Below are positions 3 through 14,845 of a DNA stretch of 14,845 nucleotides, piece after piece (positions within the stretch are counted from its first letter, which is position 1; each line of letters opens with the position of its first letter). Source of the DNA: Archangiaceae bacterium (GTDB taxonomy: Bacteria; Myxococcota; Myxococcia; Myxococcales; Myxococcaceae). The translations under genes were made by a program, and so were the position numbers. Location: NCBI GenBank assembly GCA_043750125.1, contig JAYVCD010000368.1, positions 1 to 14,845 of the forward strand, read 5' to 3'. A model generated the notes under the pieces. The model had not been told where the DNA came from and did no database searches. It saw only the letters and a list, made by a program, of their open reading frames with translations.

Positions 3-2672
3 CACCGCTTCTACGTCGGAGCGATTCGCGCCCACTGCGCCGGCGATGAAGACCGCCTTCACCGCGCGCGGGCTTTGAGTGGGGCGCTCGGGGCTCCGCT
101 GCTCGCGCATACCGACGCGCACACCGCGGTGCGAGGGCAGCAGCCGCTGCAAGACGCGATCACCGCGATCCGCCACCGCACCACGCTGGCCGCCGCGGGC
201 CGCAAGCTGTTTCCCAACGCCGAACGCACGCTCAAATCGACCGCCGAGCTGCTGCGGTTGTTTCCGGATCTTCCCGAAGCGGTGCACCGGGGCGCCGAGC
301 TGGCCCGCGGCTGCACCTTCAGCCTCGACGAGCTGAAGTACGAGTTCTCACGCGAAGAGCTGCCGCCCGGCATCGACCACCCCCAGCAATATCTGCAGCA
401 GTTGGTCGAGGGGGGGCTTCACGTGCGCTACCCGTCTGGAATTCCCGACGACGTCCGCCTGCAGATCCGCAAAGAGCTCGACCTGATCGCGGCGCTCGAC
501 TTCGCCGGCTACTTTCTCTCGCTGTGGGACATCGTCCGCTTCGCACGCGAGAGCGGCATTCTGTGCCAGGGGCGCGGCTCGGCCGCCAACTCTGCCGTCT
601 GCTACGCGCTGCAGATCACGTCAATCGACCCGGTGCGAATGGGGCTGTTGTTCGAGCGCTTCTTGTCGATGGAACGCCGCGAGCCGCCCGACATCGACGT
701 GGATTTCGAGCACGCCCGCCGCGAAGAGGTGATCCAGTACGTCTACGGCAAGCACGGCCGCCACCGCGCCGCGATGGTCAGCGAGATCATCAGCTACCGC
801 GGTCGATCGGCGGTGCGCGACGTGGGCAAAGTGCTGGGCCTGTCGGCCGACCAGGTCGACCGGCTCGCCAAGGCACTCGACATCGAAGAAGAGGTCGGCG
901 CGTTCCAGCTGCGCAGCGCGGGGCTCAACCCCAATGACCTCAAGGTCCGGCAGACGATCTCGATTTCCCGTCAGCTCGCCGGCGCTCCGCGGCACCTGTC
1001 GATTCATACCGGCGGCTTCGTCATCACCCACAGCCGGCTGACCGCGCTGGTGCCGCTCGAGAACGGACGAATGAAAGACCGCACCGTCTGCCAATGGGAC
1101 AAAGACGATCTGTCGGCGCTCAACATCCTCAAGGTCGACCTGCTCGGCCTGGGCATGCTGAACGTCGTCGCGCGGTGCTTCGATTTCGTCCGCGGTCACG
1201 AAGGGCAGGCGCTGAGCATGGCGACTGTCCCCGCCGAAGACGCGCAGGTCTACGACATGCTTTGCGAGGCCGACGCGATCGGCGTCTTTCAGGTCGAGAG
1301 CCGCGCGCAGATGAACATGCTGCCCCGGCTCAAGCCGCGGTGCTTCTACGACCTGGTGATCGAGATCGCGATCATCCGCCCCGGGCCAATCGTCGGGCAG
1401 ATGGTGCACCCGTTTCTGCGCCGGCGAGATGGCATCGAAGACATCACCTACCCCTCGGCGGACGTGAAGGACATTCTCTCGCGCACGCTGGGCGTGCCGT
1501 TGTTTCAAGAACAGGCGATGAAGCTGGCGATGGTCGCTGGCGGCTTCACACCGGGCGAGGCCGACGGGCTGCGCCGGGCGCTGTCGAACAAGCGCGCCGA
1601 AATGCTGTTGCCGCAGTACCGCGACCGCTTCATCGAAGGCTGCGTCAGCCGCGGCTACGAGCGCGCTTTCGCCGAAAGGTGCTTCAAGCAGTTCGACGGC
1701 TTTGCCCATTACGGATTTCCCGAGAGTCACTCGGCGTCGTTCGCCTTGATCGCCTACGTGTCGTCCTGGCAGAAGCGCTACCACCCGGCGGCGTTCTGCG
1801 CGGCGCTGCTCGACGCCCAGCCGATGGGCTTTTACGCGGTGCACACCCTGGTCGATGACGCCCGCCGCCACGGAGTCGAGGTGCGGGGCATCGACGTGAA
1901 CCACAGCCACTGGAACTGCACGCTCGAAGGGCCGCCGGCGCTGGGCGCTGCCGCAGATGCAGCCCCGCCTGATTGGGGGAAGGGCGGGCCTGCGCTGCGG
2001 CTGGGAATGGAGCTGGTGCGCGGGCTGCGCGAAGAATCGGCGAAGCGGGTGATGGAAGCCCAGGGCAGGGGAGGGCCCTTTTCTTCGGTTGGCCAACTGG
2101 CCCGCCGCGCCCGGATTCCCCGCTTCGAGCTCACCCGCTTAGCGCTCGCCGGAGCGCTGGGCTCGATGTGCCCCAGCCGCCGTGAAGCGCTGTGGGAAAT
2201 TCACGCGCTGGGTCCGCTGGAAGAAGATGATCTGTTCTTCGGCCTGCCGATGAATTCCCAAGGCGTCGAGCTGCCGAAGATGAGCGCGCGCGAGCGGGTG
2301 TCGACCGACTACGAGACGATCGGTCTGTCGCTCGAGTTTCACCCCATAGCGCTGCTGCGACCCCAGCTGAAGAAGCTGAACGCGATCACCGCCGAACAGC
2401 TTCAGCAGGCCAAGAGCAGCGAATGGGTCAAAGTCGGAGGGCTGGTGATTGTCCGTCAGCGGCCTCCCACCGCGAAGGGCTTCACTTTTCTCTCGGTCGA
2501 AGACGAGACGGGAATTTCGAACTTCGTGATTACTCCGCAGCTGTTCGACAAGTACCGCCGCGAGCTCACCGGTACCGCGCTGGTGCTGGGTGAGGGCCGG
2601 CTCGAGCGGCAAGGGAAGGTGGTGAATCTGAAGATCGAGCGGATCGCGCGGATCGAGCCCGAGATCGACTGA
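3..2672 (+). CDS. dnaE2: Error-prone DNA polymerase III alpha homologue DnaE2 (ImuC), 5'-truncated by the window edge
   Basis: The frame is open from position 3 (HRFYVGAIRAHCAGDEDRLHRARAL...), upstream of the ORF-track start at 75. Motifs: CQGRGSAANSAVCY, LLFERFLS..R.EPPDIDVDFE (catalytic Asp pair), PRHLSIHTGG, KVDLLGLGML, IGVFQVESRAQM, RPGPIVGQMVHPF, YGFPESHSASFA, QPMGFY, and a C-terminal OB fold (RQRPPTAKGFTFLSVEDETG). SAANS, ESRAQM and QPMGFY are DnaE2-type rather than DnaE1-type. Confidence 0.95.
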   Translation, partial: HRFYVGAIRAHCAGDEDRLHRARALSGALGAPLLAHTDAHTAVRGQQPLQDAITAIRHRTTLAAAGRKLFPNAERTLKSTAELLRLFPDLPEAVHRGAELARGCTFSLDELKYEFSREELPPGIDHPQQYLQQLVEGGLHVRYPSGIPDDVRLQIRKELDLIAALDFAGYFLSLWDIVRFARESGILCQGRGSAANSAVCYALQITSIDPVRMGLLFERFLSMERREPPDIDVDFEHARREEVIQYVYGKHGRHRAAMVSEIISYRGRSAVRDVGKVLGLSADQVDRLAKALDIEEEVGAFQLRSAGLNPNDLKVRQTISISRQLAGAPRHLSIHTGGFVITHSRLTALVPLENGRMKDRTVCQWDKDDLSALNILKVDLLGLGMLNVVARCFDFVRGHEGQALSMATVPAEDAQVYDMLCEADAIGVFQVESRAQMNMLPRLKPRCFYDLVIEIAIIRPGPIVGQMVHPFLRRRDGIEDITYPSADVKDILSRTLGVPLFQEQAMKLAMVAGGFTPGEADGLRRALSNKRAEMLLPQYRDRFIEGCVSRGYERAFAERCFKQFDGFAHYGFPESHSASFALIAYVSSWQKRYHPAAFCAALLDAQPMGFYAVHTLVDDARRHGVEVRGIDVNHSHWNCTLEGPPALGAAADAAPPDWGKGGPALRLGMELVRGLREESAKRVMEAQGRGGPFSSVGQLARRARIPRFELTRLALAGALGSMCPSRREALWEIHALGPLEEDDLFFGLPMNSQGVELPKMSARERVSTDYETIGLSLEFHPIALLRPQLKKLNAITAEQLQQAKSSEWVKVGGLVIVRQRPPTAKGFTFLSVEDETGISNFVITPQLFDKYRRELTGTALVLGEGRLERQGKVVNLKIERIARIEPEID

Positions 2673-2693
2673 AAAAGGCAGTTTCAAGGGGAA

Positions 2694-2722
2694 AGGGTGG
2701 CCGGCGACGTGCCGACCACCCT
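2694..2722 (-). terminator. Intrinsic terminator-like hairpin between convergent dnaE2 and the GlsB-family gene
   Basis: Minus-strand RNA AGGGUGGUCGGC-acguc-GCCGGCCACCCU forms a 12-bp stem with one U.G pair, followed by UUCCCCUU. It lies 26 nt after the stop of the minus-strand gene. Confidence 0.65.
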
Positions 2723-2748
2723 CGACCGCGCGAAGACCGCCGCTCTTT

Positions 2749-3036
2749 TCAGTGACGAATCGCGCCGCGGCCCGTGCCCGAGACCAACTTCACGATCCCA
2801 ATCAGCACGCAGGCGCCGAGCAGAGCCACGCCGAAGCTCGCGAACAAGCCATTATTCCCGGCCGAATCGCCGAAGACGGTGCGGGTGATGAAGCCACCGA
2901 TCACTGCGCCGATGATCCCGACGACGATGTTCATGATCGAGCCCTGCTTCGCGTTGGTGCCCATAATCATGCTGCCGACCCAGCCTGCCAGTGCGCCGAC
3001 GACGATCCAGAGGAGGATTCCGTATGAGGGGTTCAT
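2749..3036 (-). CDS. GlsB/YeaQ/YmgE family stress-response membrane protein (transglycosylase-associated protein), 95 aa
   Basis: MNPSYGILLWIVVGALAGWVGSMIMG..QGSIMNIVVGIIGAVIGGFI..FGVALLGACVLIGIVKLV has three Gly-rich hydrophobic segments typical of the family. The ATG at 3036 is preceded by an AAGGA Shine-Dalgarno. Confidence 0.9.
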   Translation of the reverse strand: MNPSYGILLWIVVGALAGWVGSMIMGTNAKQGSIMNIVVGIIGAVIGGFITRTVFGDSAGNNGLFASFGVALLGACVLIGIVKLVSGTGRGAIRH

Positions 3037-3083
3037 TGTGTAGTCCTTGGGTGAGGGTTTGAACTGCGCTGGCCGGCGTCTTG

Positions 3084-3099
3084 AGCAACGCAAATGCCA
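3084..3099 (-). promoter_or_regulatory. Sigma-54 (-24/-12) promoter for the GlsB-family gene
   Basis: The minus strand reads TGGCATTTGCGTTGCT, matching TGGCA-N6-TTGCW with exact GG/GC spacing. Predicted TSS is near 3073, about 37 nt before the ATG. Confidence 0.7.
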
Positions 3100-3182
3100 G
3101 CGCCATCCTCGCGAAATATTTTGGCTCTTCTGGCAGAAAGAAGAAAATGCGCGTTTTAGCCCCAGGCGCGGTCGTCACACCG

Positions 3183-3199
3183 TGTCGCGAAATGTCGCG
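3183..3199. promoter_or_regulatory. Tandem direct repeat TGTCGCG-aaa-TGTCGCG (10-bp period), candidate enhancer-binding-protein site
   Basis: TGTCGCG occurs at 3183-3189 and 3193-3199. TCGCGAAAT occurs at 3109-3117 and 3185-3193. The repeat lies about 110-125 bp upstream of the predicted sigma-54 TSS, with an A/T-rich stretch in between. Confidence 0.4.
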
Positions 3200-3368
3200 C
3201 ACTCTGCCAACGCGAGAACACAAACCGCGCGGAGTCCGATCGTTCCCACCCGGTAAAAAGAGAACCACAAAAAATACTTGGCCCCCTTTTTCCCAGGCGA
3301 CTTACCGGCATGCGGAAGGGGAACAGCCCTTTCGCCCCATTGCCGCACTCCTTTCCCTGGAAAAGTCC

Positions 3369-3659
3369 ATGTCGATGAAAACCCTGGTTCGTGCAGTTCT
3401 GGTGTCGTGTTCCGTGCTGATGACGGGCTGCGCGCCGAAGCTTTACGTTCGCGTTCAACAGCCGGCTCCGACCAACCTCGGTGCCTCGAAGCGGATGTCG
3501 ATTGTCCCAGGAGCCACCCAGGAAAGCCAACATCGTGAAAATCGCAGTTTCCGCTTCGGCGGTCTTGCTCAGCCTCACCGCCTGGGCCCAACAGGATCAG
3601 CAGCCGCAGGCAGACCCCCAACCCACCCAGCCCTCCCAGGCCGAACCGCAGCGTGCTGA
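3369..3659 (+). pseudogene. Probable 5' remnant of a lipoprotein gene; only about the first 47 codons look genuine
   Basis: MSMKTLVRAVLVSCSVLMTG-C is a signal peptide with a lipobox, followed by APKLYVRVQQPAPTNLGASKRMSIV. After about 3510 the frame runs out-of-frame through the RBS and first 125 nt of the next gene with junk-like sequence. Confidence 0.5.
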
Positions 3660-4191
3660 GCCGATGAAGAGCAAGACCGACTCGGCCCCGGCAGGCTCGA
3701 TGGCCAAGCTCGGTCGAGACGACAAGGCATTTGTGATGGAAGCCGCCATCGGTGGGCTGGCTGAAGTCGAGATGGGCAAGCTGGCGGCCGACAATGCCGT
3801 CAGCCGGGAAGTGAAGGACTTCGGCGAGCGCATGGTCACCGACCATGAGAAGGCCAACAAGGATCTCGAGCAGGCCGTCGCGCCGTACGGGGTCATTCTT
3901 CCGACCAAGGTCGATGACGTCCATCAGCGCCACCTCGACATGCTCAAAGCCAAGAAGGGTGCCGACTTCGACCGCGCCTTCACGCGCCACATGGTCGAGG
4001 GCCACGAGAAGATGGTGAAGCTGTTCAAGAAGGAAGCGAGGTCCGGTCAGGCCGCGCCCGTCAAAGAGTTCGCGACCAACACCCTTCCCACTCTTCAAGA
4101 GCACCTGAAGATCGCCAAGGATCTCGCCAAGGCGAAGACCTCGTCCCGCTGGCTCGCGAGAGGCCGGCGCTCGGGTGACACGGGCTCGTAG
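3535..4191 (+). CDS. DUF4142 domain (ferritin-like) secreted protein
   Basis: GTG start at 3535 after AGGA. Signal peptide MKIAVSASAVLLSLTAWA, then a Q/P-rich linker, then DKAFVMEAAIGGLAEVEMGKLA..VKDFGERMVTDHEKAN..GADFDRAFTRHMVEGHEK..FATNTLPTLQEHLKIAKDL, the DUF4142 signature. Confidence 0.9.
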   Translation: MKIAVSASAVLLSLTAWAQQDQQPQADPQPTQPSQAEPQRAEPMKSKTDSAPAGSMAKLGRDDKAFVMEAAIGGLAEVEMGKLAADNAVSREVKDFGERMVTDHEKANKDLEQAVAPYGVILPTKVDDVHQRHLDMLKAKKGADFDRAFTRHMVEGHEKMVKLFKKEARSGQAAPVKEFATNTLPTLQEHLKIAKDLAKAKTSSRWLARGRRSGDTGS

Positions 4192-4216
4192 ATGACGCCC
4201 CCTCACCCGAGCGCCG
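4165..4216 (+). terminator. Strong stem-loop (perfect 14-bp inverted repeat), probable terminator or mRNA-stabilising hairpin
   Basis: CGGCGCTCGGGTGA (4165-4178) pairs with TCACCCGAGCGCCG (4203-4216), with extra inner GGGC/GCCC pairing, followed by TGTTCAATCTT. Confidence 0.65.
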
Positions 4217-4285
4217 TGTTCAATCTTGCGACATTGGGAAAAAATGCGGCATTTCCCGAGGGCGTAACCCTGCCGAAGAACACAG

Positions 4286-4301
4286 CGGCATCATTCGTGC
4301 T
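4286..4301 (+). promoter_or_regulatory. Possible sigma-54 promoter for the DUF748 gene
   Basis: CGGCATCATTCGTGCT has correct -24 GG / -12 GC spacing. The predicted TSS (~4312) is only about 3 nt from the ATG at 4315, so the transcript would be nearly leaderless. Confidence 0.35.
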
Positions 4302-4314
4302 GCCAGGTCACAAC

Positions 4315-5484
4315 ATGGCTCGCCAAACCCGTTGGTTTCAGACCAAGAAATTTTGGGCGCTGGTGCTCACGCCCCTCGTTTTGTTCCTGCTCGTCTTCTA
4401 CGGGCTGGACCCGCTGGTCGAGTGGCGAACCCGTGAGGCGCTCAAGCTCTTTCAGCCGCAGTACCTCGTGACGTTCGAAGACGCTTCGTTGCAGCCGACC
4501 AAGCTCAACTACGCGCTCACCCACCTGAAAATCATGAAGGAATCGGCCGGGGGCAACGCCGAGCCGTACATCTACATCGACCGCCTGGAAATGGGCGTCT
4601 ACGGGAAGGAGCTGCTCCACCTGCACCTCGTCGCCACGATGGAATTAGAGAAAGTCCGGCTCAACCTGATTGCCGCCAAGAGCAAAGAGAATGAGCAGTT
4701 GGACACCGGGATCCCCGACTTTTCGGACAAGCTCGCCGCAGCGCTGCCCCTGACGGTCGACCGGGTTCAAGTCAAAGACGCAGAGGTGATGTTCATCGAC
4801 AAGACGAACCCCGACTTCCCCAAAGTGTGGCTCCACGCGATCGACGGCACGCTCGAGAATCTCGCGACCCGCGCGGCACTGGCCCGGGGCGAGCCCACGT
4901 CGATTGCGATCTCGGGAAAGATCCAGAAGACGGGCGAGATCTCGGCCTTCATCACCGCCGACCCTCTGTCCAAAGGCCTGTTCTTTGCCGGCCGCGCGAT
5001 GCTGACCCACTTCGAGATGAACGAGCTGGGGAAGGTGATGGCTTCCAAAAGCGGGCTGACGGTTCAAAAAGGCACCCTCGACCTCTTTGCCGAATTCGAC
5101 TGCCGGGCCGGAAAGCTCTCTGGAGGAATCAAGCCGGTGCTGAAAAATGTCGAAGTTGCTCAGGGCAAGCCGGGGCTGAGCAACGCGATCAATGCGGTGC
5201 TCGCCGACGCCGCGGTGAAGATCTTCTCGGACCGCGTGGGTGACCGCGCCGCCGTGGCGACGGTGATTCCCATTCGCGGCGACATCGACCAGCCCCAGGT
5301 TCAGCTCTGGCCCGCGGTCGTCGGCGTCATCCGCAACGCCTTCGTGATCGGCGTCTCAGAGAGCTTCCAGCGGTTGCCGTTGCCCAAATCCGACAAGCCG
5401 CAGGGGCCCATCGACCAGGCGCTCGACGCGCTCGACAAGAAAGAGGGCCCCAAGGCCCAGCCCCCCAGTCCCCCGAAGTCGTAG
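4315..5484 (+). CDS. DUF748 domain (AsmA-like) membrane-anchored protein
   Basis: ATG at 4315 is preferred over 4192 because 4192-4314 contains the hairpin and promoter-like DNA. A basic N-terminus and single TM (FWALVLTPLVLFLLVFYGL) are followed by a beta-rich body ending ..GTLDLFAEF..LSGGIKPVLKNVEV..ATVIPIRGDIDQP...WPAVVGVIRNAFV, typical of DUF748 proteins. Confidence 0.8.
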   Translation: MARQTRWFQTKKFWALVLTPLVLFLLVFYGLDPLVEWRTREALKLFQPQYLVTFEDASLQPTKLNYALTHLKIMKESAGGNAEPYIYIDRLEMGVYGKELLHLHLVATMELEKVRLNLIAAKSKENEQLDTGIPDFSDKLAAALPLTVDRVQVKDAEVMFIDKTNPDFPKVWLHAIDGTLENLATRAALARGEPTSIAISGKIQKTGEISAFITADPLSKGLFFAGRAMLTHFEMNELGKVMASKSGLTVQKGTLDLFAEFDCRAGKLSGGIKPVLKNVEVAQGKPGLSNAINAVLADAAVKIFSDRVGDRAAVATVIPIRGDIDQPQVQLWPAVVGVIRNAFVIGVSESFQRLPLPKSDKPQGPIDQALDALDKKEGPKAQPPSPPKS

Positions 5485-9709: not shown

Positions 9710-10879
9710 TTAACGATGCCCTCCCCGGGTCAGCTGGGTAACCGCTTCCCCCAGCCCTTCGAGGGTCAAAGGGTACATCGCGAACACCCTGCGGATCACC
9801 TCGATCGTCGTCTGCCACCACTCGCGGGGGCGCTCGGGGTTGAGCCAGACCGACTGGGGAAACCGTTCGACCAGCCGCATCAGCCAGACCACTCCTTCGG
9901 CATCGTCTTCGGCCCCGGAAGTCCCGGTCAGTTCCCACGGAGCCATCAGCGCGTCGCCCACCACGATCAACTTATAGGTGGGGTTCGTCTCGGCAAACAG
10001 CTGCCCCAGCGAGACCGGATTTCGCAGCTGGGCGGTGCCGTAGACCCGCCCGTAGATGCAGTTGTGGAAGTAGTAGGTGCGCAGCTCTTTGAAGTGGGTC
10101 GCCTTTTTCGCCGCGGTGAACAGCCGCGAGACGGTGTCGGCGTGGGGATCCATCGAGCCGCCCACGTCCATCAACAAGATGACCTTGGTGTTCGATTTGC
10201 GCGGCGGGCGGGTGACGACTTCCAGCTCGCCTAAGTTCCGCGCGGTCTGCTCGATCGTCTCGTCGAGATCCAGCTCGTCGGGCCGGCCTTCTCGCGCGAA
10301 GGCCCGCAACTTTCGAAGAGCGAGCGCCAGCTGCCGCACGTCGAGCACCACGTCGTCCCGGTAATCGCGAAAATGGCGCTCGCCCGCAACAGCGAAGGCC
10401 CTTCGGTTCCCGCCCGGTCCTCCGACGCGAATGCCTTCCCGCGGCGCCCCGCTGTGCCCGAACGGCGACGTCCCGCCAGTGCCGACCCACTTGTTGCCTC
10501 CGTCGTGGCGCTCTTTTTGTTCCTTCAGCCGTTCCGCGAACATCTTTTCCAAGCTCGCCCGATCGAGCTGGTCGAGCAGCGCCAGCTCTTCGGCGGTCAG
10601 GGTCGGGCGCCGGGCCTGGGCGTCTTTGAGCCAGTCGAGCAGCTGCTGCTGAATTTCGTTCGCTGAAATTTCGATGCCCTTGAAGTGCTTCGCGAACGCC
10701 TGGTCGAACGCGTCGAGCTGCGTCTCGCTGTGCACCAGCAGCGACCGCGCCACGTCGTAAAACCCATCGAGGCTGCTGTCGTGCAGCCCCTCTTTGAGCG
10801 CCTGCGCGAGCGCGACCGCTTCCTGTGTTCCCACCGGCACCTTCAGCGCGCGCAGCTCGTACAGGAAGGGAATGAACAT
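9710..10879 (-). CDS. VWA domain (CoxE-like) partner of the MoxR ATPase, 389 aa
   Basis: HDGGNKWVGTGGTSPFGHSG, ELDLDETIEQTARN, MIDAS-like LLMDVGGSMD, YYFHNCIY, IVVGDALMAPWEL and VWLNP. It starts 9 bp after the MoxR stop. Confidence 0.88.
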   Translation of the reverse strand: MFIPFLYELRALKVPVGTQEAVALAQALKEGLHDSSLDGFYDVARSLLVHSETQLDAFDQAFAKHFKGIEISANEIQQQLLDWLKDAQARRPTLTAEELALLDQLDRASLEKMFAERLKEQKERHDGGNKWVGTGGTSPFGHSGAPREGIRVGGPGGNRRAFAVAGERHFRDYRDDVVLDVRQLALALRKLRAFAREGRPDELDLDETIEQTARNLGELEVVTRPPRKSNTKVILLMDVGGSMDPHADTVSRLFTAAKKATHFKELRTYYFHNCIYGRVYGTAQLRNPVSLGQLFAETNPTYKLIVVGDALMAPWELTGTSGAEDDAEGVVWLMRLVERFPQSVWLNPERPREWWQTTIEVIRRVFAMYPLTLEGLGEAVTQLTRGGHR

Positions 10880-10888
10880 GGTCGGCGA

Positions 10889-11716
10889 TCAAGCGCGGCT
10901 GCGTTTGCCTCCGGCGAAGGCTTCGGTGAAGGCCTGCAGATCCTGCTCGCGCTTGAGCAGCGCTCCGAGGAAGGGCAGCTGCTCGTCGAGCTTCAGGCTC
11001 TTGGTTCCGGTGGCCTTCAGCGCCGCCAGCCAGTCGATCAGCTCGGAAGTGCTGGGCCGCTTGCGCAGCCGGGCGAAGCCACGCAGCTCGAAGAAGATCT
11101 GCAGCGCCTGGTCCACCAGTCGGGCGTCGAGATCCGGGTGGTGCACATCGACGATGCGCCGCATCAGCGCCGGGTCGGGAAAATCGATGAAGTGGAAGAC
11201 GCATCGGCGAAGGAAGGCGTCGGGCAGATCTTTTTCGTTGTTGCTGGTGATGATCACCACCGGCCGTTGTGCGGCGACGATCTCTTCGTCGGTCTCGGTA
11301 ATTCGAAAGCTCATCCGGTCGAGCTCGTGGAGCAGATCGTTGGGGAACTCGAGATCGGCCTTGTCGATTTCGTCGATCAGCAGCACCCGCCGCTCTTTCG
11401 ACGCGAAGGCTTCTCCCAGCGGGCCGAGCTTGAGGTACTTCTTGATGTCGCGCACGTCGTGATCGTTGAAGCGCGAGTCGTGCAGACGTTCGACGGCGTC
11501 GTACACGTAGAGCCCGTCTTGGGCCCGACTGGTGCTCTTCACGTGCCAGGTGAGCATCTTCAGATCGAGCGCCTGAGCGATCGCCTGGGCCAGCAGCGTC
11601 TTTCCCGTGCCGGGCTCACCCTTCACCAAAAGGGGCCGCTGCAGCGCCAGCGCGCAGTCCACCGCCGAACGAAGGCCTTCAGAAGTCAGGTACGAATCGG
11701 TGCCTTTGAAGCGCAT
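10889..11716 (-). CDS. MoxR-family AAA+ ATPase (short PA2707/CoxD-like type), 275 aa
   Basis: ATG at 11716 follows an AGGAG SD. Walker A GEPGTGKT, WHVKSTS, Walker B LLIDEIDKADLEFPNDLLHELDRM, sensor-1 ITSNNEK, Arg finger AFLRRC, and KRPSTSELIDW. Confidence 0.93.
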   Translation of the reverse strand: MRFKGTDSYLTSEGLRSAVDCALALQRPLLVKGEPGTGKTLLAQAIAQALDLKMLTWHVKSTSRAQDGLYVYDAVERLHDSRFNDHDVRDIKKYLKLGPLGEAFASKERRVLLIDEIDKADLEFPNDLLHELDRMSFRITETDEEIVAAQRPVVIITSNNEKDLPDAFLRRCVFHFIDFPDPALMRRIVDVHHPDLDARLVDQALQIFFELRGFARLRKRPSTSELIDWLAALKATGTKSLKLDEQLPFLGALLKREQDLQAFTEAFAGGKRSRA

Positions 11717-11742
11717 GCGTGTGTCTCCTACTCGATTTCCGA

Positions 11743-13509
11743 TCAGAGAATCTCCTCCCAACTGGGAGACGCCGCGAACGCGGCACGAATCAACCCCACG
11801 TGCGAGTACGCCTGGGGAAAGTTGCCCCACATCCGCCGGTTCGCCGTCTCGATGTCCTCAGACAGCAAACCCAGCGGCGACATCGCGGCGTGAATGCGGG
11901 CCAGCACGTCGGTGGCATCCTGTTTCCGGCCGATCACCGCCAGCGCCTCGACCAGCCAGAAGGTGCAGATCACGAACGCGACGGTGGGCTGGCCAAACCC
12001 GTCGTCGAGCCGGTAGCGAAACAGCCAACCCTCGTGGCCCAGCCCCTTCCAGATCGCCTCGACGGTGCTGCGCAGCCTTGGGTCATCGGGAGGAAACATG
12101 TGCAGCGGCGCCATCTCGAGCAGCGAGGCATCGAGATTCTTTCCCCCGTAGCTGCCAGCGAAAGACCCAAGCTCTGGGCTCCACGCCCGCTCAATCACCT
12201 GCGCGCTGATCGCGGTCGCTGCGTCGCGAAACTCCTTTTCCTTTCCCGGAAGGTGTCGGGCCGCCACCCGCGCCATGCGATCGGCCGCCGCCCAGCTCAT
12301 CAGGCTCGAGAACGTCTGCGGCTGCCACTCGGTGCGGTATTCCCAGATGCCGGCGTCCGGAGTTCCCGCCAGCGAGATGGCCTTCCTCGCCAACCTTTCC
12401 AACAGCCCCAGGGCGTCGGCCGAGCGCTCGGCCTTGAACCGGTCATCGAGGAACACCGGCGTCAACGCCAACACCATCTCTCCAAAAATGTCGTTCTGCT
12501 GGTGCTTCGCCGCCCCGTTGCCCACCCGAACCGGGCCTTCGCCATTGAAGCCTGGCCAATGGGCGAGGATCTTTTCCTCGAGGTCCAGGCTGCCGTCGAT
12601 GCGGTAGAGCGGGTTGAGCGCCAGCTCAGGGTTGGAAGCGGCAATGTTCAACAGGTAGGTGACGAAGCTCTCGCGCTCTTCGAATCGCCCCAGCATTCGA
12701 AAGGCGCCCAGGGCGTAATAGGCGTCGCGCAGCCAGCAATAGCGGTAGTCCCACGTCCGGCCGCTGCCCGCCGACTCGGGAATCGAAGTGGTCATCGCGG
12801 CGACGATCGCTCCGGTGTCCTCGTAGCAGTGCAGCTTGAGCACCAGCGCCGAACGAATCACTTCCTGCTGAAACAGCGGAGGAATGTCGCAGTCCTTCAC
12901 CCAATTGCCCCAGTACCGCACCGTCTCGTCGAGGAACCGGTGGCACACCGCCGACAAGGACTCTTCGATCGGAGGCCCGTAACTGAAGACGAAGTGCCTC
13001 CGCTCGGACAGCACGAAGGGCTGGCCTTCGAGGTACGACAACGGGATGTCGGTGGTCAGCCGGACCTGGCTTGCGTAGCCCTCGAACCGCACGTGGTGTG
13101 AGCCCTGCGCGCGCTCGGGAACGGCCTTGGACCAGCCCAACTTCGGATCCAGAAAAACAGAGACCCGCGGCGTTCCGGTGATCGGTTCGACGATTCGGAT
13201 CAGCTGGGTGGGCCGGAAGGTCCGGTTGTTCTGCACAAAGCGGGGCGCAAAGTCGATCACCCGAAAGCTGCCGTCCTCGGAAACGAACGTCGTCTCGACC
13301 ACGTTGGTGTTGTCCAGGTAACGCTGAGTCCCCGAAGTAACGTCGGGGGTCCCGATGCGAAACTGGCCGCCGCCCCCCTCGTCGAGCAGGGTAGAAAAGA
13401 TCGGCTCGGAATCGAACCTCGGTAAGCAGCACCACACCACTGAGCCTTTTCGGTCGATCAACGCAGAGAATTGGCAATTGCCGACGAGCGCAAGATCTTC
13501 GAGTCGCAT
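11743..13509 (-). CDS. Glycoside hydrolase family 15 (trehalase/glucoamylase-like), cytoplasmic, ~588 aa
   Basis: LALVGNCQFSALI..GSVVWCCLPRFDS, GAIVAAMTTSIPE..G..RTWDYRYCWLRDAYY, PVRVGNGA..HQQNDIFGE, DAGIWEYR, AFVICTFW and LGLLSEDI...WGNFPQAYSHVGLI. There is no signal peptide. Confidence 0.93.
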   Translation of the reverse strand: MRLEDLALVGNCQFSALIDRKGSVVWCCLPRFDSEPIFSTLLDEGGGGQFRIGTPDVTSGTQRYLDNTNVVETTFVSEDGSFRVIDFAPRFVQNNRTFRPTQLIRIVEPITGTPRVSVFLDPKLGWSKAVPERAQGSHHVRFEGYASQVRLTTDIPLSYLEGQPFVLSERRHFVFSYGPPIEESLSAVCHRFLDETVRYWGNWVKDCDIPPLFQQEVIRSALVLKLHCYEDTGAIVAAMTTSIPESAGSGRTWDYRYCWLRDAYYALGAFRMLGRFEERESFVTYLLNIAASNPELALNPLYRIDGSLDLEEKILAHWPGFNGEGPVRVGNGAAKHQQNDIFGEMVLALTPVFLDDRFKAERSADALGLLERLARKAISLAGTPDAGIWEYRTEWQPQTFSSLMSWAAADRMARVAARHLPGKEKEFRDAATAISAQVIERAWSPELGSFAGSYGGKNLDASLLEMAPLHMFPPDDPRLRSTVEAIWKGLGHEGWLFRYRLDDGFGQPTVAFVICTFWLVEALAVIGRKQDATDVLARIHAAMSPLGLLSEDIETANRRMWGNFPQAYSHVGLIRAAFAASPSWEEIL

Positions 13510-13560
13510 GCAAAGAACGCTAACTGGAATCAATTGCTACACCAATCAATTGAAGATTCT
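13510..13560. promoter_or_regulatory. Compact A/T-rich divergent promoter region with a duplicated AATCAATTG motif
   Basis: AATCAATTG occurs at 13528-13536 and 13544-13552 (16-bp period), and each copy contains the palindrome CAATTG. This is the only non-coding DNA between the two divergent genes. Confidence 0.55.
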
Positions 13561-13569
13561 ATGGACTTC

Positions 13570-14845
13570 ATGTCGCGCGCCTTGAAGTTCGTCGTGGTCC
13601 TGGTGATTGGGCTGGGCCTGCTGACGCTGGGCGCGTCGACGCTGCTCAACAACACCACCCGCAACTGGTTCGGGCGCGATCTCGATCTGCGCGCTGAGCT
13701 GGCGGTCAACGGGGCGCGCCAGGCGTTGCTGCTGCACTGGAAGTCCGGGGGAGGAAAGGCGCTCGAGGCCCTGCTGGTCGAGCTCACCCGGGACGGTCGT
13801 CTGCTCGCGGCCGCGGCCTGTGACGACGATCTGCGGTTGCTGGCCAGGACGCGCGACTTTCCCGAGCAGTTCGAGTGCAAGAAAATCGGAAGCTCGCTGC
13901 GCGTTTCGACCGACGGCGGCCCGGGTGAGTGGGCCAGCTTCAAGACCCGGGCGATGCTGCCCGGCGGCGCGGTGCACGTCAGCGCCATTCCGATCTTCGA
14001 CGAAGACCAGGTGGCTGGCTTTGTCGTGCTCGTCCACGACATGAGCTTCGTCGCCCGACGCGAAGAGAAGACCGACGAGTTTTTACTGATTGGCTTTGCG
14101 ATTCTCGCGCTCGGCGCGTCGATCATCACAGTCATTGCCTCTCGCCTCTCGTGGCGTGGCTGGAGCAACGAGTTGCGCCGCCTGCTCAAAGGCGGAGGGC
14201 CTCCGCCCGAGTTCCAGCCGCTGTTGCAGGACGTGCGTGATCTGGTCGAGCGGATCGCCAGTGAGAAAGAATCTGACGGCCTGGGCGGGCCGTGGACTCC
14301 GCAGCGGCTGAAGTACACCCTCAACCGTCATCTGCATGGCGAGAAGGTCGTCATCCTCGCCAACCGCGAGCCCTACATTCATTCGCGAAACAGCGACGGA
14401 AAGCTGCTCACGGTCCACCCGGCCAGCGGCCTGGTCACTGCCCTTGAGCCGGTGATGCGCGCCTGCTCGGGCACCTGGGTCGCCCACGGCAGCGGCAACG
14501 CCGACAAGGAAATGGCCGACGGACACAGTCGGGTGCGGGTCCCCCCTGGCGAAGAGTCGTACACCATTCGTCGGGTCTGGCTCAGCCCCGAGGAAGAGCG
14601 GGGCTACTACTACGGCTTTTCCAACGAGGGCCTCTGGCCGCTGTGCCACGTCGCCCACACCCGGCCGCTGTTTCGCGGGCAGGACTGGGCTCACTACCAG
14701 GCGGTGAACAAGAAGTTCGCCGATGCGGTGTGTTCGGAAGTCGATTCAGAGGATCCGATCGTCCTCGTTCAGGACTACCACTTCGCCCTCGCCCCCAGGC
14801 TCATTCGCGAGCGCTTGCCACGCGCGACCGTCATCACTTTCTGGC
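13570..14845 (+). CDS. otsA: Trehalose-6-phosphate synthase (GT20) with an N-terminal two-TM periplasmic sensor-like module; 3'-truncated by the window edge
   Basis: Hand translation gives an open frame from ATG 13570 (alternative ATG 13561) to the window end. It is absent from the ORF track because it has no stop in the window. GT20 motifs start at about 14341: VVILANREPYIH, ASGLVTALEPVMRACSGTWVAHGSG, GYYYGFSNEGLWPLCH, YQAVNKKFADAV, VLVQDYHFALAPRLIR. Confidence 0.92.
   Translation, partial: MSRALKFVVVLVIGLGLLTLGASTLLNNTTRNWFGRDLDLRAELAVNGARQALLLHWKSGGGKALEALLVELTRDGRLLAAAACDDDLRLLARTRDFPEQFECKKIGSSLRVSTDGGPGEWASFKTRAMLPGGAVHVSAIPIFDEDQVAGFVVLVHDMSFVARREEKTDEFLLIGFAILALGASIITVIASRLSWRGWSNELRRLLKGGGPPPEFQPLLQDVRDLVERIASEKESDGLGGPWTPQRLKYTLNRHLHGEKVVILANREPYIHSRNSDGKLLTVHPASGLVTALEPVMRACSGTWVAHGSGNADKEMADGHSRVRVPPGEESYTIRRVWLSPEEERGYYYGFSNEGLWPLCHVAHTRPLFRGQDWAHYQAVNKKFADAVCSEVDSEDPIVLVQDYHFALAPRLIRERLPRATVITFW

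Follow-up and report, generated by a model that had tools for sequence, protein, structure and literature searches.

An OtsA-type trehalose-6-phosphate synthase fused to a membrane module with a predicted PDC sensor domain: a candidate receptor-type enzyme

Trehalose shields cells from drying, salt and cold, and the textbook modes of control over its synthesis are transcription, as with otsBA of Escherichia coli, and soluble allosteric effectors. The stretch of DNA analysed here (the window; 14,845 nucleotides of an Archangiaceae bacterium, GCA_043750125.1, JAYVCD010000368.1) ends within a gene for a trehalose-6-phosphate (T6P) synthase, otsA, which encodes a long additional N-terminal part ahead of the GT20 catalytic domain. 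The locus raises the question of whether T6P synthesis can be the direct output of a membrane receptor, as the initial annotation had proposed. The analysis favoured, with a probability of about 55%, a receptor-type enzyme in which a change at the outside domain or at the membrane interface would reach the lobes of the GT-B fold through the second membrane helix and a two-helix linker. The window is the entire contig C368 of an assembly of 6.17 Mb in 460 contigs with 89% completeness.

The long otsA gene is read from an ATG at position 13570 (MSRALKF...), the same start as in the closest full-length homologue, P0001 (746 aa, 76% identical); an alternative in-frame ATG lies at 13561. The frame runs off the contig end, and the gene is thus truncated by the assembly, with no stop codon involved. 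The G+C content at third codon positions (GC3) of this frame was 0.82, the same as in the adjoining genes, which identifies the overlapping antisense open reading frames (ORFs) as the usual artefacts of high-GC DNA. The ORF, the start shared with P0001 and the GC3 value bear out the proposal of one open frame with about 257 residues ahead of the GT20 domain.

An artefact of assembly or gene calling, such as a chimeric contig or the read-through of two genes, could be suspected from the contig end falling inside the gene and from a second contig of the assembly (C364), which holds a non-identical copy of the 193 bases that overlap. As this overlap is only 85% identical in nucleotides, C364 represents a co-binned strain variant or a paralogue and not a clean continuation of the window. 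However, a single frame of 733-821 aa was found in relatives, including complete one-contig genomes, and since closed genomes keep the gene as one frame, an assembly artefact is excluded. In a survey of named genomes from many phyla (600 candidate stretches examined, 26 loci confirmed), the N-terminal module and GT20 were encoded in one frame with two hydrophobic segments at 25 of the 26 loci. The probability of an artefact of either kind is vanishingly small, and the possibility that the N-terminal part is a separate ORF in related genomes fails on the same observation, the GT20 fusion being kept there as one frame. The exception (L077, a Gemmatimonadales metagenome-assembled genome, ~3788-5127), in which the frame stops at 423 aa with one hydrophobic segment, is probably a frameshift or a pseudogene. 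Pieces resembling otsB and GH15 genes lie downstream of it.

The membrane topology was assessed by a Kyte-Doolittle scan (19-residue window, threshold 1.6) over the 425 residues encoded in the window. Exactly two hydrophobic segments were detected, residues 7-26 and 171-190, with the same coordinates as the two transmembrane helices (TM1 and TM2) named at the outset. The charge is basic in the N-terminal tail (R3, K6) and behind TM2, and net acidic in the residues leading up to TM2. The predicted topology is N-in and C-in, with a domain of 144 residues outside and the basic N-terminal tail in the cytoplasm; an OtsA-type enzyme requires cytoplasmic sugar nucleotides. Two cysteines of the outside domain, C84 and C103, are invariant and may form a disulfide.

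The fold of the outside domain was examined in a model of the 258 N-terminal residues, built on a 96-sequence alignment, and in a second model of full-length P0001. The mean predicted local distance difference test (pLDDT) score of the N-terminal model was 79.8, with about 90 at residues 40-160, and the full-length model (mean 86.3) agreed with it. In these models, TM1 extends into a long helix, after which come two short helices and a sheet of five strands, the last of which leads into the TM2 helix. The best structure match was the extracellular domain of Staphylococcus aureus WalK (4ywz_A; Z 12.2, rmsd 2.9, 134 of 147 residues), followed by PctD (Z 11.1), DvhD (Z 10.5), CitA (Z 10.4) and DctB (Z 10.2), and the top matches among solved structures were all extracytoplasmic PAS, PDC or Cache sensor domains. 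The Foldseek search with the sensor domain gave E 4.3e-5 and a TM-score of 0.70 normalised to the target, and for the whole 258-residue module the top rank was held by a full-length WalK model with the order TM-PAS-TM-HAMP (9a5d_A, E 2.7e-8, 266 columns). The expectation of a Cache/PAS-like periplasmic domain, which had been drawn from a hairpin before TM2 resembling the end of Cache/PDC sensors, was therefore right at the level of the fold.

The fold comparisons also returned a LapD-type output domain (4u64, of the LapD orthologue CdgS9; Z 9.5, Foldseek E 2.0e-3) and Roadblock/LC7 domains (Z ~9-10), which indicates that the core fold is a common one; in the models, it is the long N-terminal helix together with the two flanking membrane helices that makes it a PDC sensor. 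LapD has the order TM-PAS-like-TM-HAMP, the same as the long OtsA, and its match would suit inside-out signalling, in which the enzyme would signal its substrate- or product-bound state outward through the capture or release of a periplasmic partner by the outside domain. However, higher scores (Z 10-12) were obtained with sensor domains from kinases and chemoreceptors, no conserved gene for a periplasmic partner was found in the 26 + 6 neighbourhoods examined, and the recurrent neighbours encode cytoplasmic trehalose enzymes. Signalling in this direction is regarded as highly improbable.

Searches with the N-terminal part returned 201 homologues (E <= 1e-3) from one protein collection and 671 cluster representatives from a second; with such numbers and a confident fold, it is far from a chance product. 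Conservation was expressed as the mean frequency of the commonest residue per region in the 96 sequences. The GT20 domain reached 0.79, followed by helix 244-258 (0.76), linker helix 1 (0.74) and the segment before TM2 (0.72), and the other parts of the sensor, including its first helix and its strands, ranged from 0.49 to 0.64. The constraint on linker helix 1 and on the pre-TM2 segment, nearly as strong as on the enzyme itself, favours a receptor. In an alignment of 26 rows from the named genomes, with 29-54% identity to the window, 13 columns were invariant: eight in the sensor domain (W33, D37, R41, C84, P98, C103, D157 and R164), followed by W198, P217, W242, L247 and L251. The module is retained across phyla down to 27-34% identity. 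Most of the invariant outside residues lie in the helix that directly continues TM1 or where the last strand joins TM2, and hence at the membrane-proximal base of the domain.

The linker directly follows TM2, the helix of which continues into linker helix 1. A heptad core with a hydrophobic fraction of at least 0.9 was observed at positions 193, 195, 198, 202, 205 and 206 and at positions 215, 218, 219, 222, 225, 226 and 229. G208 ends helix 1 in 82 of the 96 sequences, and helix 2 is opened by E214-F-x-P217, with E214 present in 90 of 96. The connector between the helices is about 11 residues shorter in the clade of the window than in the proteobacterial, Geobacter, Nitrospira and Verrucomicrobiota forms; this short-connector clade comprises the window and four loci (L053-L056) labelled Thermoanaerobaculia, Muproteobacteria, uncultured bacterium and Terriglobales. 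A HAMP comparison profile was built from 36 HAMP domains of the same genome and aligned using hhalign. The 16 rows with a long connector matched it with 44 columns in register (score 15.4, P 0.007), RGEG being placed on the GDL of HAMP and PELQPL on DEIGxL. None of 150 column shuffles reached this score (mean 8.5, sd 1.7, maximum 14.3), and the reversed alignment gave 12.2.

Following the linker, only GT20 was found, and no DHp (HisKA) or ATPase domain was detected in the window protein or in the full-length homologues. Helix 244-255, which leads into the catalytic domain, had a pLDDT of 81-86 in the full-length model. In the window fragment, Pfam PF00982 matched with E 1.1e-27 and 97.3 bits (cut-off 32.5), the match beginning near residue 259, and Pfam returned nothing significant for the residues ahead of it. 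NCBIfam trehalose_OtsA also matched the fragment (E 5e-29), and an orthologue from the same genus gave 399 bits with PF00982 over profile positions 2-470. The fragment contains the invariant motifs NREPY, PASGLVTALEP and QDYH. The motifs of GT20 (Gly-rich loop, DYH, GFH, RLDYxKG and DGMNLVAKE) have substrate-binding and catalytic roles according to the structures of E. coli OtsA, and their columns were invariant or at least 90% conserved in the 96 sequences; the first two lie on the window fragment and the remaining ones on the C364 fragment. Residues 260-726 of P0001 aligned end to end with residues 13-474 of Mycobacterium thermoresistibile OtsA (5jij; E 5.4e-85), and its catalytic domain also aligned with the fungal and E. 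coli enzymes. The C-terminal helix, residues 714-743, is long and basic and extends about 15 residues beyond the solved enzymes. Judged from its sequence, the GT20 domain appears to be complete and catalytically intact.

The scores leave some room for another product, such as glucosylglycerol phosphate or a different sugar phosphate, in which case the label OtsA would be wrong: P0001 scored 419.5 bits with TIGR02400 (trehalose_OtsA), below the equivalog cut-off of 564.85, and the GgpS model also matched, with 310 bits. However, the OtsA models as a group (419-469 bits, below their equivalog cut-offs) clearly outscore GgpS, and the closest solved relative is the characterised mycobacterial OtsA mentioned above. 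A trehalose-phosphatase gene directly follows, its T6PP match on the C364 fragment lying above the cut-off, and trehalase-type genes of GH15 or GH37 adjoin. A different product is therefore considered improbable.

A natural variant provided further evidence on the linker. Two genomes from a single genus, both of them closed (G216 and G240), have an otsA gene for a protein of 642 aa that consists of TM1, about 40 residues, TM2, the linker and an intact GT20 domain, the sensor being gone. From the pre-TM2 segment on, it aligned with P0001 without gaps at 70% identity. Helix 242-255 and the enzyme are intact, but six of the 13 conserved core positions of the linker (193, 205, 206, 215, 219 and 222) are now Gly, Pro or His. 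Decay of the linker core where the sensor has been deleted indicates that the linker is constrained only together with the sensor, which favours coupling between the two. Both genomes also encode a bifunctional T6P synthase-phosphatase (TPS-TPP) of 731 aa. In addition, a distant homologue of the sensor domain was found in three genomes of another genus (G247, with weaker matches in G218 and G199) in a protein of 759 aa, where it stands ahead of an MFS transporter domain (MFS_1, E 5.7e-32) that is preceded by the second membrane helix; the sensor match had an hhalign probability of 90% (P 1.6e-6, 139 columns). Its fusion to MFS as well as to GT20 shows that the sensor domain is a module combined with at least two partners.

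Several results weigh against a receptor-type enzyme. Pfam Cache, PAS and CHASE models gave no match at E <= 1 in the window protein and the 26 diverse homologues, apart from stray matches to CHASE4 in two homologues (E 0.019) and CusS in one (E 0.12). The N-terminal profile had no match at E <= 10 among the sequences of the Protein Data Bank, and by its sequence the sensor domain is an orphan; a comparison of language-model features placed sCache_3_2 as the nearest named cluster other than GT20 (score 0.94, 184 shared features), which serves as a lead only. Segment 95-131, between strands 2 and 3, is the least conserved region (0.38), and it corresponds to what we take to be the region that shapes the ligand pocket in other PDC sensors. 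With the invariant residues at the membrane-proximal base, this means that conservation follows the transmission path and not the putative pocket. The sensor-less protein retains both TM1 and TM2. Moreover, the window gene is incomplete, its own C-terminal half and its own otsB not being on the contig.

The remaining adverse results concern the linker. It was the least confident part of both monomer models (pLDDT 43-63 overall, 43-55 in the full-length one), and Pfam HAMP (PF00672) gave no match at E <= 1 in the window protein and 26 homologues. A six-frame search of the genome returned 37 HAMP domains, none of them on the contig of the window. The 96-row linker alignment matched the HAMP profile with a probability of 0.7%, which was low because the window type with its shortened connector dominates the rows; the short-connector rows themselves gave 0.7-2%. 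When all 26 rows were used, the score of 14.35 was reached by three of 150 shuffles. The connector of the window protein has about 6-7 residues, compared with the 13-14 or so that are normal for HAMP, and may be too short for a canonical parallel HAMP bundle. The HAMP-like linker proposed at the outset thus stands in its helix-connector-helix form, its heptad pattern and its Gly/Glu landmarks, but not as a domain that Pfam recognises, and its similarity to the profile is weak and its connector short. As read from these alignments, the linker is probably a very divergent HAMP that was trimmed in the clade of the window.

The same observations can be explained by an anchor or scaffold, in which the helices and the outside domain would place OtsA at the membrane and stabilise an oligomer while carrying no signal. 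The sites envisaged are beside channels, transporters or OtsB, or where trehalose is needed. Retention of both membrane helices after the loss of the sensor suggests that membrane attachment is of value in itself; the poorly conserved pocket region and the lack of matches to HAMP and Cache models would be expected, and conserved outside residues adjacent to the membrane would suit a structural role. However, an anchor needs neither a folded domain of 144 residues with eight invariant residues across phyla at 27-34% identity nor a linker as conserved as the enzyme, and it does not account for the decay of that linker once the sensor is lost. The fold and the order of TM, domain, TM and two helices are also those of signalling receptors. 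Since the loss of the sensor was one evolutionary event, the evidence from it is modest and cuts both ways. Anchoring without signalling, the main alternative, is considered rather unlikely.

For a receptor-type enzyme, the following sequence of events is proposed. While the architecture, the conservation pattern and the decay of the linker are shown by the analysis, dimerisation, the signal and the effect on catalysis are inferred: the membrane-integral T6P synthase of about 745 residues would act as a dimer, like other PDC-TM-HAMP receptors. A homodimer prediction with two copies of the 258-residue module scored 0.05 against a mark of 0.42, which counts neither for nor against a dimer. A cue would be perceived at the periplasmic PDC/Cache domain or at the membrane interface, and the change would pass through TM2 and the short HAMP-like linker. 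The conserved amphipathic helix would connect the linker to the N-lobe of the cytoplasmic GT20 domain, so that the position or closure of the GT-B lobes might shift and the rate of T6P synthesis be altered. The product would be converted to trehalose by OtsB, which is encoded next door.

The distribution of the fusion was determined in several samples. The N-terminal module was present in 14 of 41 close relatives, with a frame of 700-821 aa (~745) where no contig end intervenes. In the phylum sample it occurred in 68 of 301 genomes (63 of the 254 high-quality ones), and in one family in 28 of 39 genomes, some with two or three copies. Among the homologues in the protein collection, 113 of the 120 listed (201 in total) carry PF00982, and the other seven are mostly short pieces. 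The carriers in the survey of named genomes included metagenome-assembled genomes labelled Thermoanaerobaculia, Terriglobales, Gemmatimonadales, Verrucomicrobiota, Smithellaceae, Nitrospira, Chromatiaceae, Steroidobacteraceae and Casimicrobiaceae, as well as Geobacter and the cultured Caenimonas koreensis DSM 17982 and Janthinobacterium sp. GB4P2. When 33 longer cluster representatives were analysed using Pfam, GT20 was found in 13, no family in 20 and another family in none. Nine of those 20 were inspected; eight enter the N-terminal motifs of GT20 in frame and are then frame-shifted, and one is frame-shifted throughout. The sensor module was thus joined to GT20 in all checked cases, apart from the distant MFS-fused homologue. 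Sensor-OtsA is a genuine variant of OtsA, old and widely distributed.

Apparent triple fusions in L072 (935 aa) and L069 (845 aa) were rejected, as they contain only a truncated GT20 followed by unmatched sequence and look like frameshifts. Larger proteins in G256 (2119 aa) and G120 (1017 aa) were attributed to upstream read-through in high-GC DNA.

Within the same bacterial family, 15 of 29 GT20-bearing genomes lack the sensor form. The two alternative genes that were checked (in G015 and G017) encode soluble GT20-phosphatase fusions of about 730 aa, and both GT20 forms are present in G009 and G017. With a like length and a like public name, the sensor-fused form and the bifunctional TPS-TPP cannot be separated by annotation. 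The suspicion that similar long OtsA proteins exist in databases under a plain annotation was confirmed, their public name being "trehalose-6-phosphate synthase".

The genes around otsA were then compared; the coordinates of all features are collected in Table 1. Only about 40-60 bases separate otsA from the divergent GH15 gene, which matched NCBIfam TreH1 with 295 bits, below its cut-off, and which may truly begin at an ATG a few codons downstream of the listed start. An AAA ATPase/VWA pair also stands beside the long otsA in a genome of the same genus (G004), which indicates that the local gene order is conserved. Further genes of the window, unrelated to this subject, encode a DUF4142 protein and a cNMP-binding protein. 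Both contig ends cut genes, dnaE at one end and otsA at the other. The only other GT20 match in the genome was that on contig C364 (L002), with 387 C-terminal residues of the same OtsA type, and the otsB gene there gave 77.9 bits with T6PP against a cut-off of 68. A search of positions 13000-14200 against Rfam at E <= 1 returned only a chance-level HgcC match (E 0.3; 17 bits against a gathering score of 50) and no riboswitch. A sigma-70 consensus scan of positions 13350-13700 revealed no promoter, and a single terminator-like site, at chance level, lies within the GH15 gene. DNA matching the window was present in five sequencing runs, all of them sediment metagenomes from two studies; no RNA run was among the matches listed, which says nothing about expression.

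Table 1. Coordinates of the features in the window and of the genes compared with them
Feature	Coordinates	Strand	Remarks
Open reading frame	13471..14844	+	Still open at contig end
Long otsA, 5' part, 425 codons	13570..14845	+	Stopped by contig end
TM1, residues 7-26	13588..13647	+	Hydropathy peak >1.6; helical in both models
Predicted PDC/Cache-type PAS-like sensor domain, residues 27-170 (144 residues)	13648..14079	+	AF2 pLDDT ~90, fold matches
TM2, residues 171-190	14080..14139	+	Hydropathy peak; helix continuous with last sensor strand and linker helix 1
Amphipathic helix-connector-helix linker, residues 191-236	14140..14277	+	Predicted cytoplasmic; HAMP-like pattern, short GGGPPP connector
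Amphipathic helix into catalytic domain, residues 242-258	14293..14343	+	W242, L247, L251, L255, G257 conserved
GT20 (OtsA) domain, first 167 residues	14344..14845	+	Pfam PF00982
GH15 trehalase-like gene, divergent from otsA	11743..13533	-	Pfam Glyco_hydro_15 E 1.4e-43, TREH_N E 1.4e-14
AAA ATPase gene, then VWA (CoxE-like) gene	9710-11830	-	Beyond GH15 gene
FAD-dependent oxidoreductase (DAO), 573 aa	6425-8146	-	N-terminal BFD-like 2Fe-2S and sarcosine-oxidase A3 domain
DNA polymerase III alpha subunit (dnaE) fragment	3-2672	+	Contig starts inside gene
C364: otsA C-terminal part, then otsB	2-1165 and 1162-1692	+	otsB start overlaps otsA stop
L017 (G004): AAA ATPase/VWA pair beside long otsA	10283-12294	+	Same genus
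L082 (G216:C1): sensor-less otsA	1613-3541	-	642 aa
L081 (G247:C1): sensor homologue fused to MFS	1538-3817	+	759 aa
L079 (G015): GT20-phosphatase fusion	1250-3442	+	Soluble, ~730 aa
L080 (G017): GT20-phosphatase fusion	1451-3625	+	Soluble, ~730 aa

In relatives, otsB lies directly 3' of the long otsA in four of six cases. Within about 2.6 kb of the 26 named loci, otsB was found at least 10 times, GH15 at least 12 times, Na+/H+ antiporters and MarR at least twice each, and MscS and CLC at least once each; ORF picking was crude, and these counts are lower bounds. Ion-handling neighbours of the long otsA included Na+/H+ antiporters (L054 and L062), an MscS-type channel (L073) and CLC (L061, and two in L018). 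They fit an osmotic or ionic theme, although this is not a systematic count. The neighbours (otsB and trehalase, and elsewhere antiporters, MscS and CLC) and the conserved membrane-proximal base both suggest that the cue is of an envelope, ionic or osmotic kind and not a single small ligand common to all members. In the most complete form of the receptor-type proposal, the enzyme would be a true one-component receptor, in which the PDC domain reads an envelope cue and, by way of a minimal HAMP-like hairpin, directly sets the rate of T6P synthesis within seconds, with neither transcription nor second messengers. This form falls just short of an even chance, and the cues that come tentatively into consideration are ionic strength, osmolarity, hydration or a cell-wall product.

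To our knowledge, the outputs of PDC-TM-HAMP modules have so far been kinases, cyclases, phosphatases and chemoreceptors. If the receptor-type reading is true, a central metabolic glycosyltransferase would be added to them, and control through a synthase wired directly to a sensor in the periplasm would act faster and differ in kind from the textbook modes. Compatible-solute synthesis would itself be a receptor output in many phyla of soil, sediment and groundwater. The design is common: about one fifth of the genomes sampled within the phylum have it, and it also occurs in Acidobacteriota, Gemmatimonadota, Nitrospira, Verrucomicrobiota, Desulfobacterota and many Burkholderiales. The sensor-less variant is a deletion control made by nature. 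No description of the sensor-OtsA fusion was found in the full-text literature, a coverage that leaves subscription journals largely outside, and within the same coverage no functional characterisation was found, in line with the initial annotation. The one trace came from the Geobacter metallireducens genome paper (PMC2700814), which states that part of GSU2337, described there as a domain, shares 37% identity with the enzyme of M. tuberculosis.

Compared with known systems, the window type shares its catalytic domain, motifs and otsB partner with the soluble OtsA/Tps1 enzymes (5jij; E. coli 1gz5/1uqt; Candida Tps1 5hut), but adds about 258 N-terminal residues, with two TM helices, sensor and linker, and a basic C-terminal extension of about 15 residues. 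WalK (YycG) has the same order of TM1, extracellular PAS/PDC domain, TM2 and linker and is the best fold match of both the domain and the module. The identity to WalK, however, is only 13-14%; DHp and ATPase domains are missing, the output is a GT-B glycosyltransferase, and the linker is shorter and unrecognised by Pfam HAMP. CitA, DcuS and DctB and the chemoreceptors PctD, Tlp3 and McpA belong to the same fold class (Z 9.6-11.1). In contrast to these single-Cache/PDC sensors, the long OtsA has no Pfam Cache match, and the loop region that presumably binds the ligand in them is the least conserved here.

The bifunctional TPS-TPP enzymes (NCBIfam NF011071, ~730 aa) are of similar length, bear the same database name and occur in the same bacterial family, but they have no membrane helices or sensor, and their phosphatase is fused C-terminally instead of being encoded by a separate otsB. 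Their Pfam GT20 scores were 500-540 bits, compared with 360-406 bits for the sensor-fused form. In Thermoproteus tenax, a trehalose operon of TPSP, a glycosyltransferase and a putative mechanosensitive channel is reported (PMC3634074). Trehalose-phosphate synthesis is likewise genetically tied to a membrane osmosensing element in this organism, but the channel is encoded by a separate gene.

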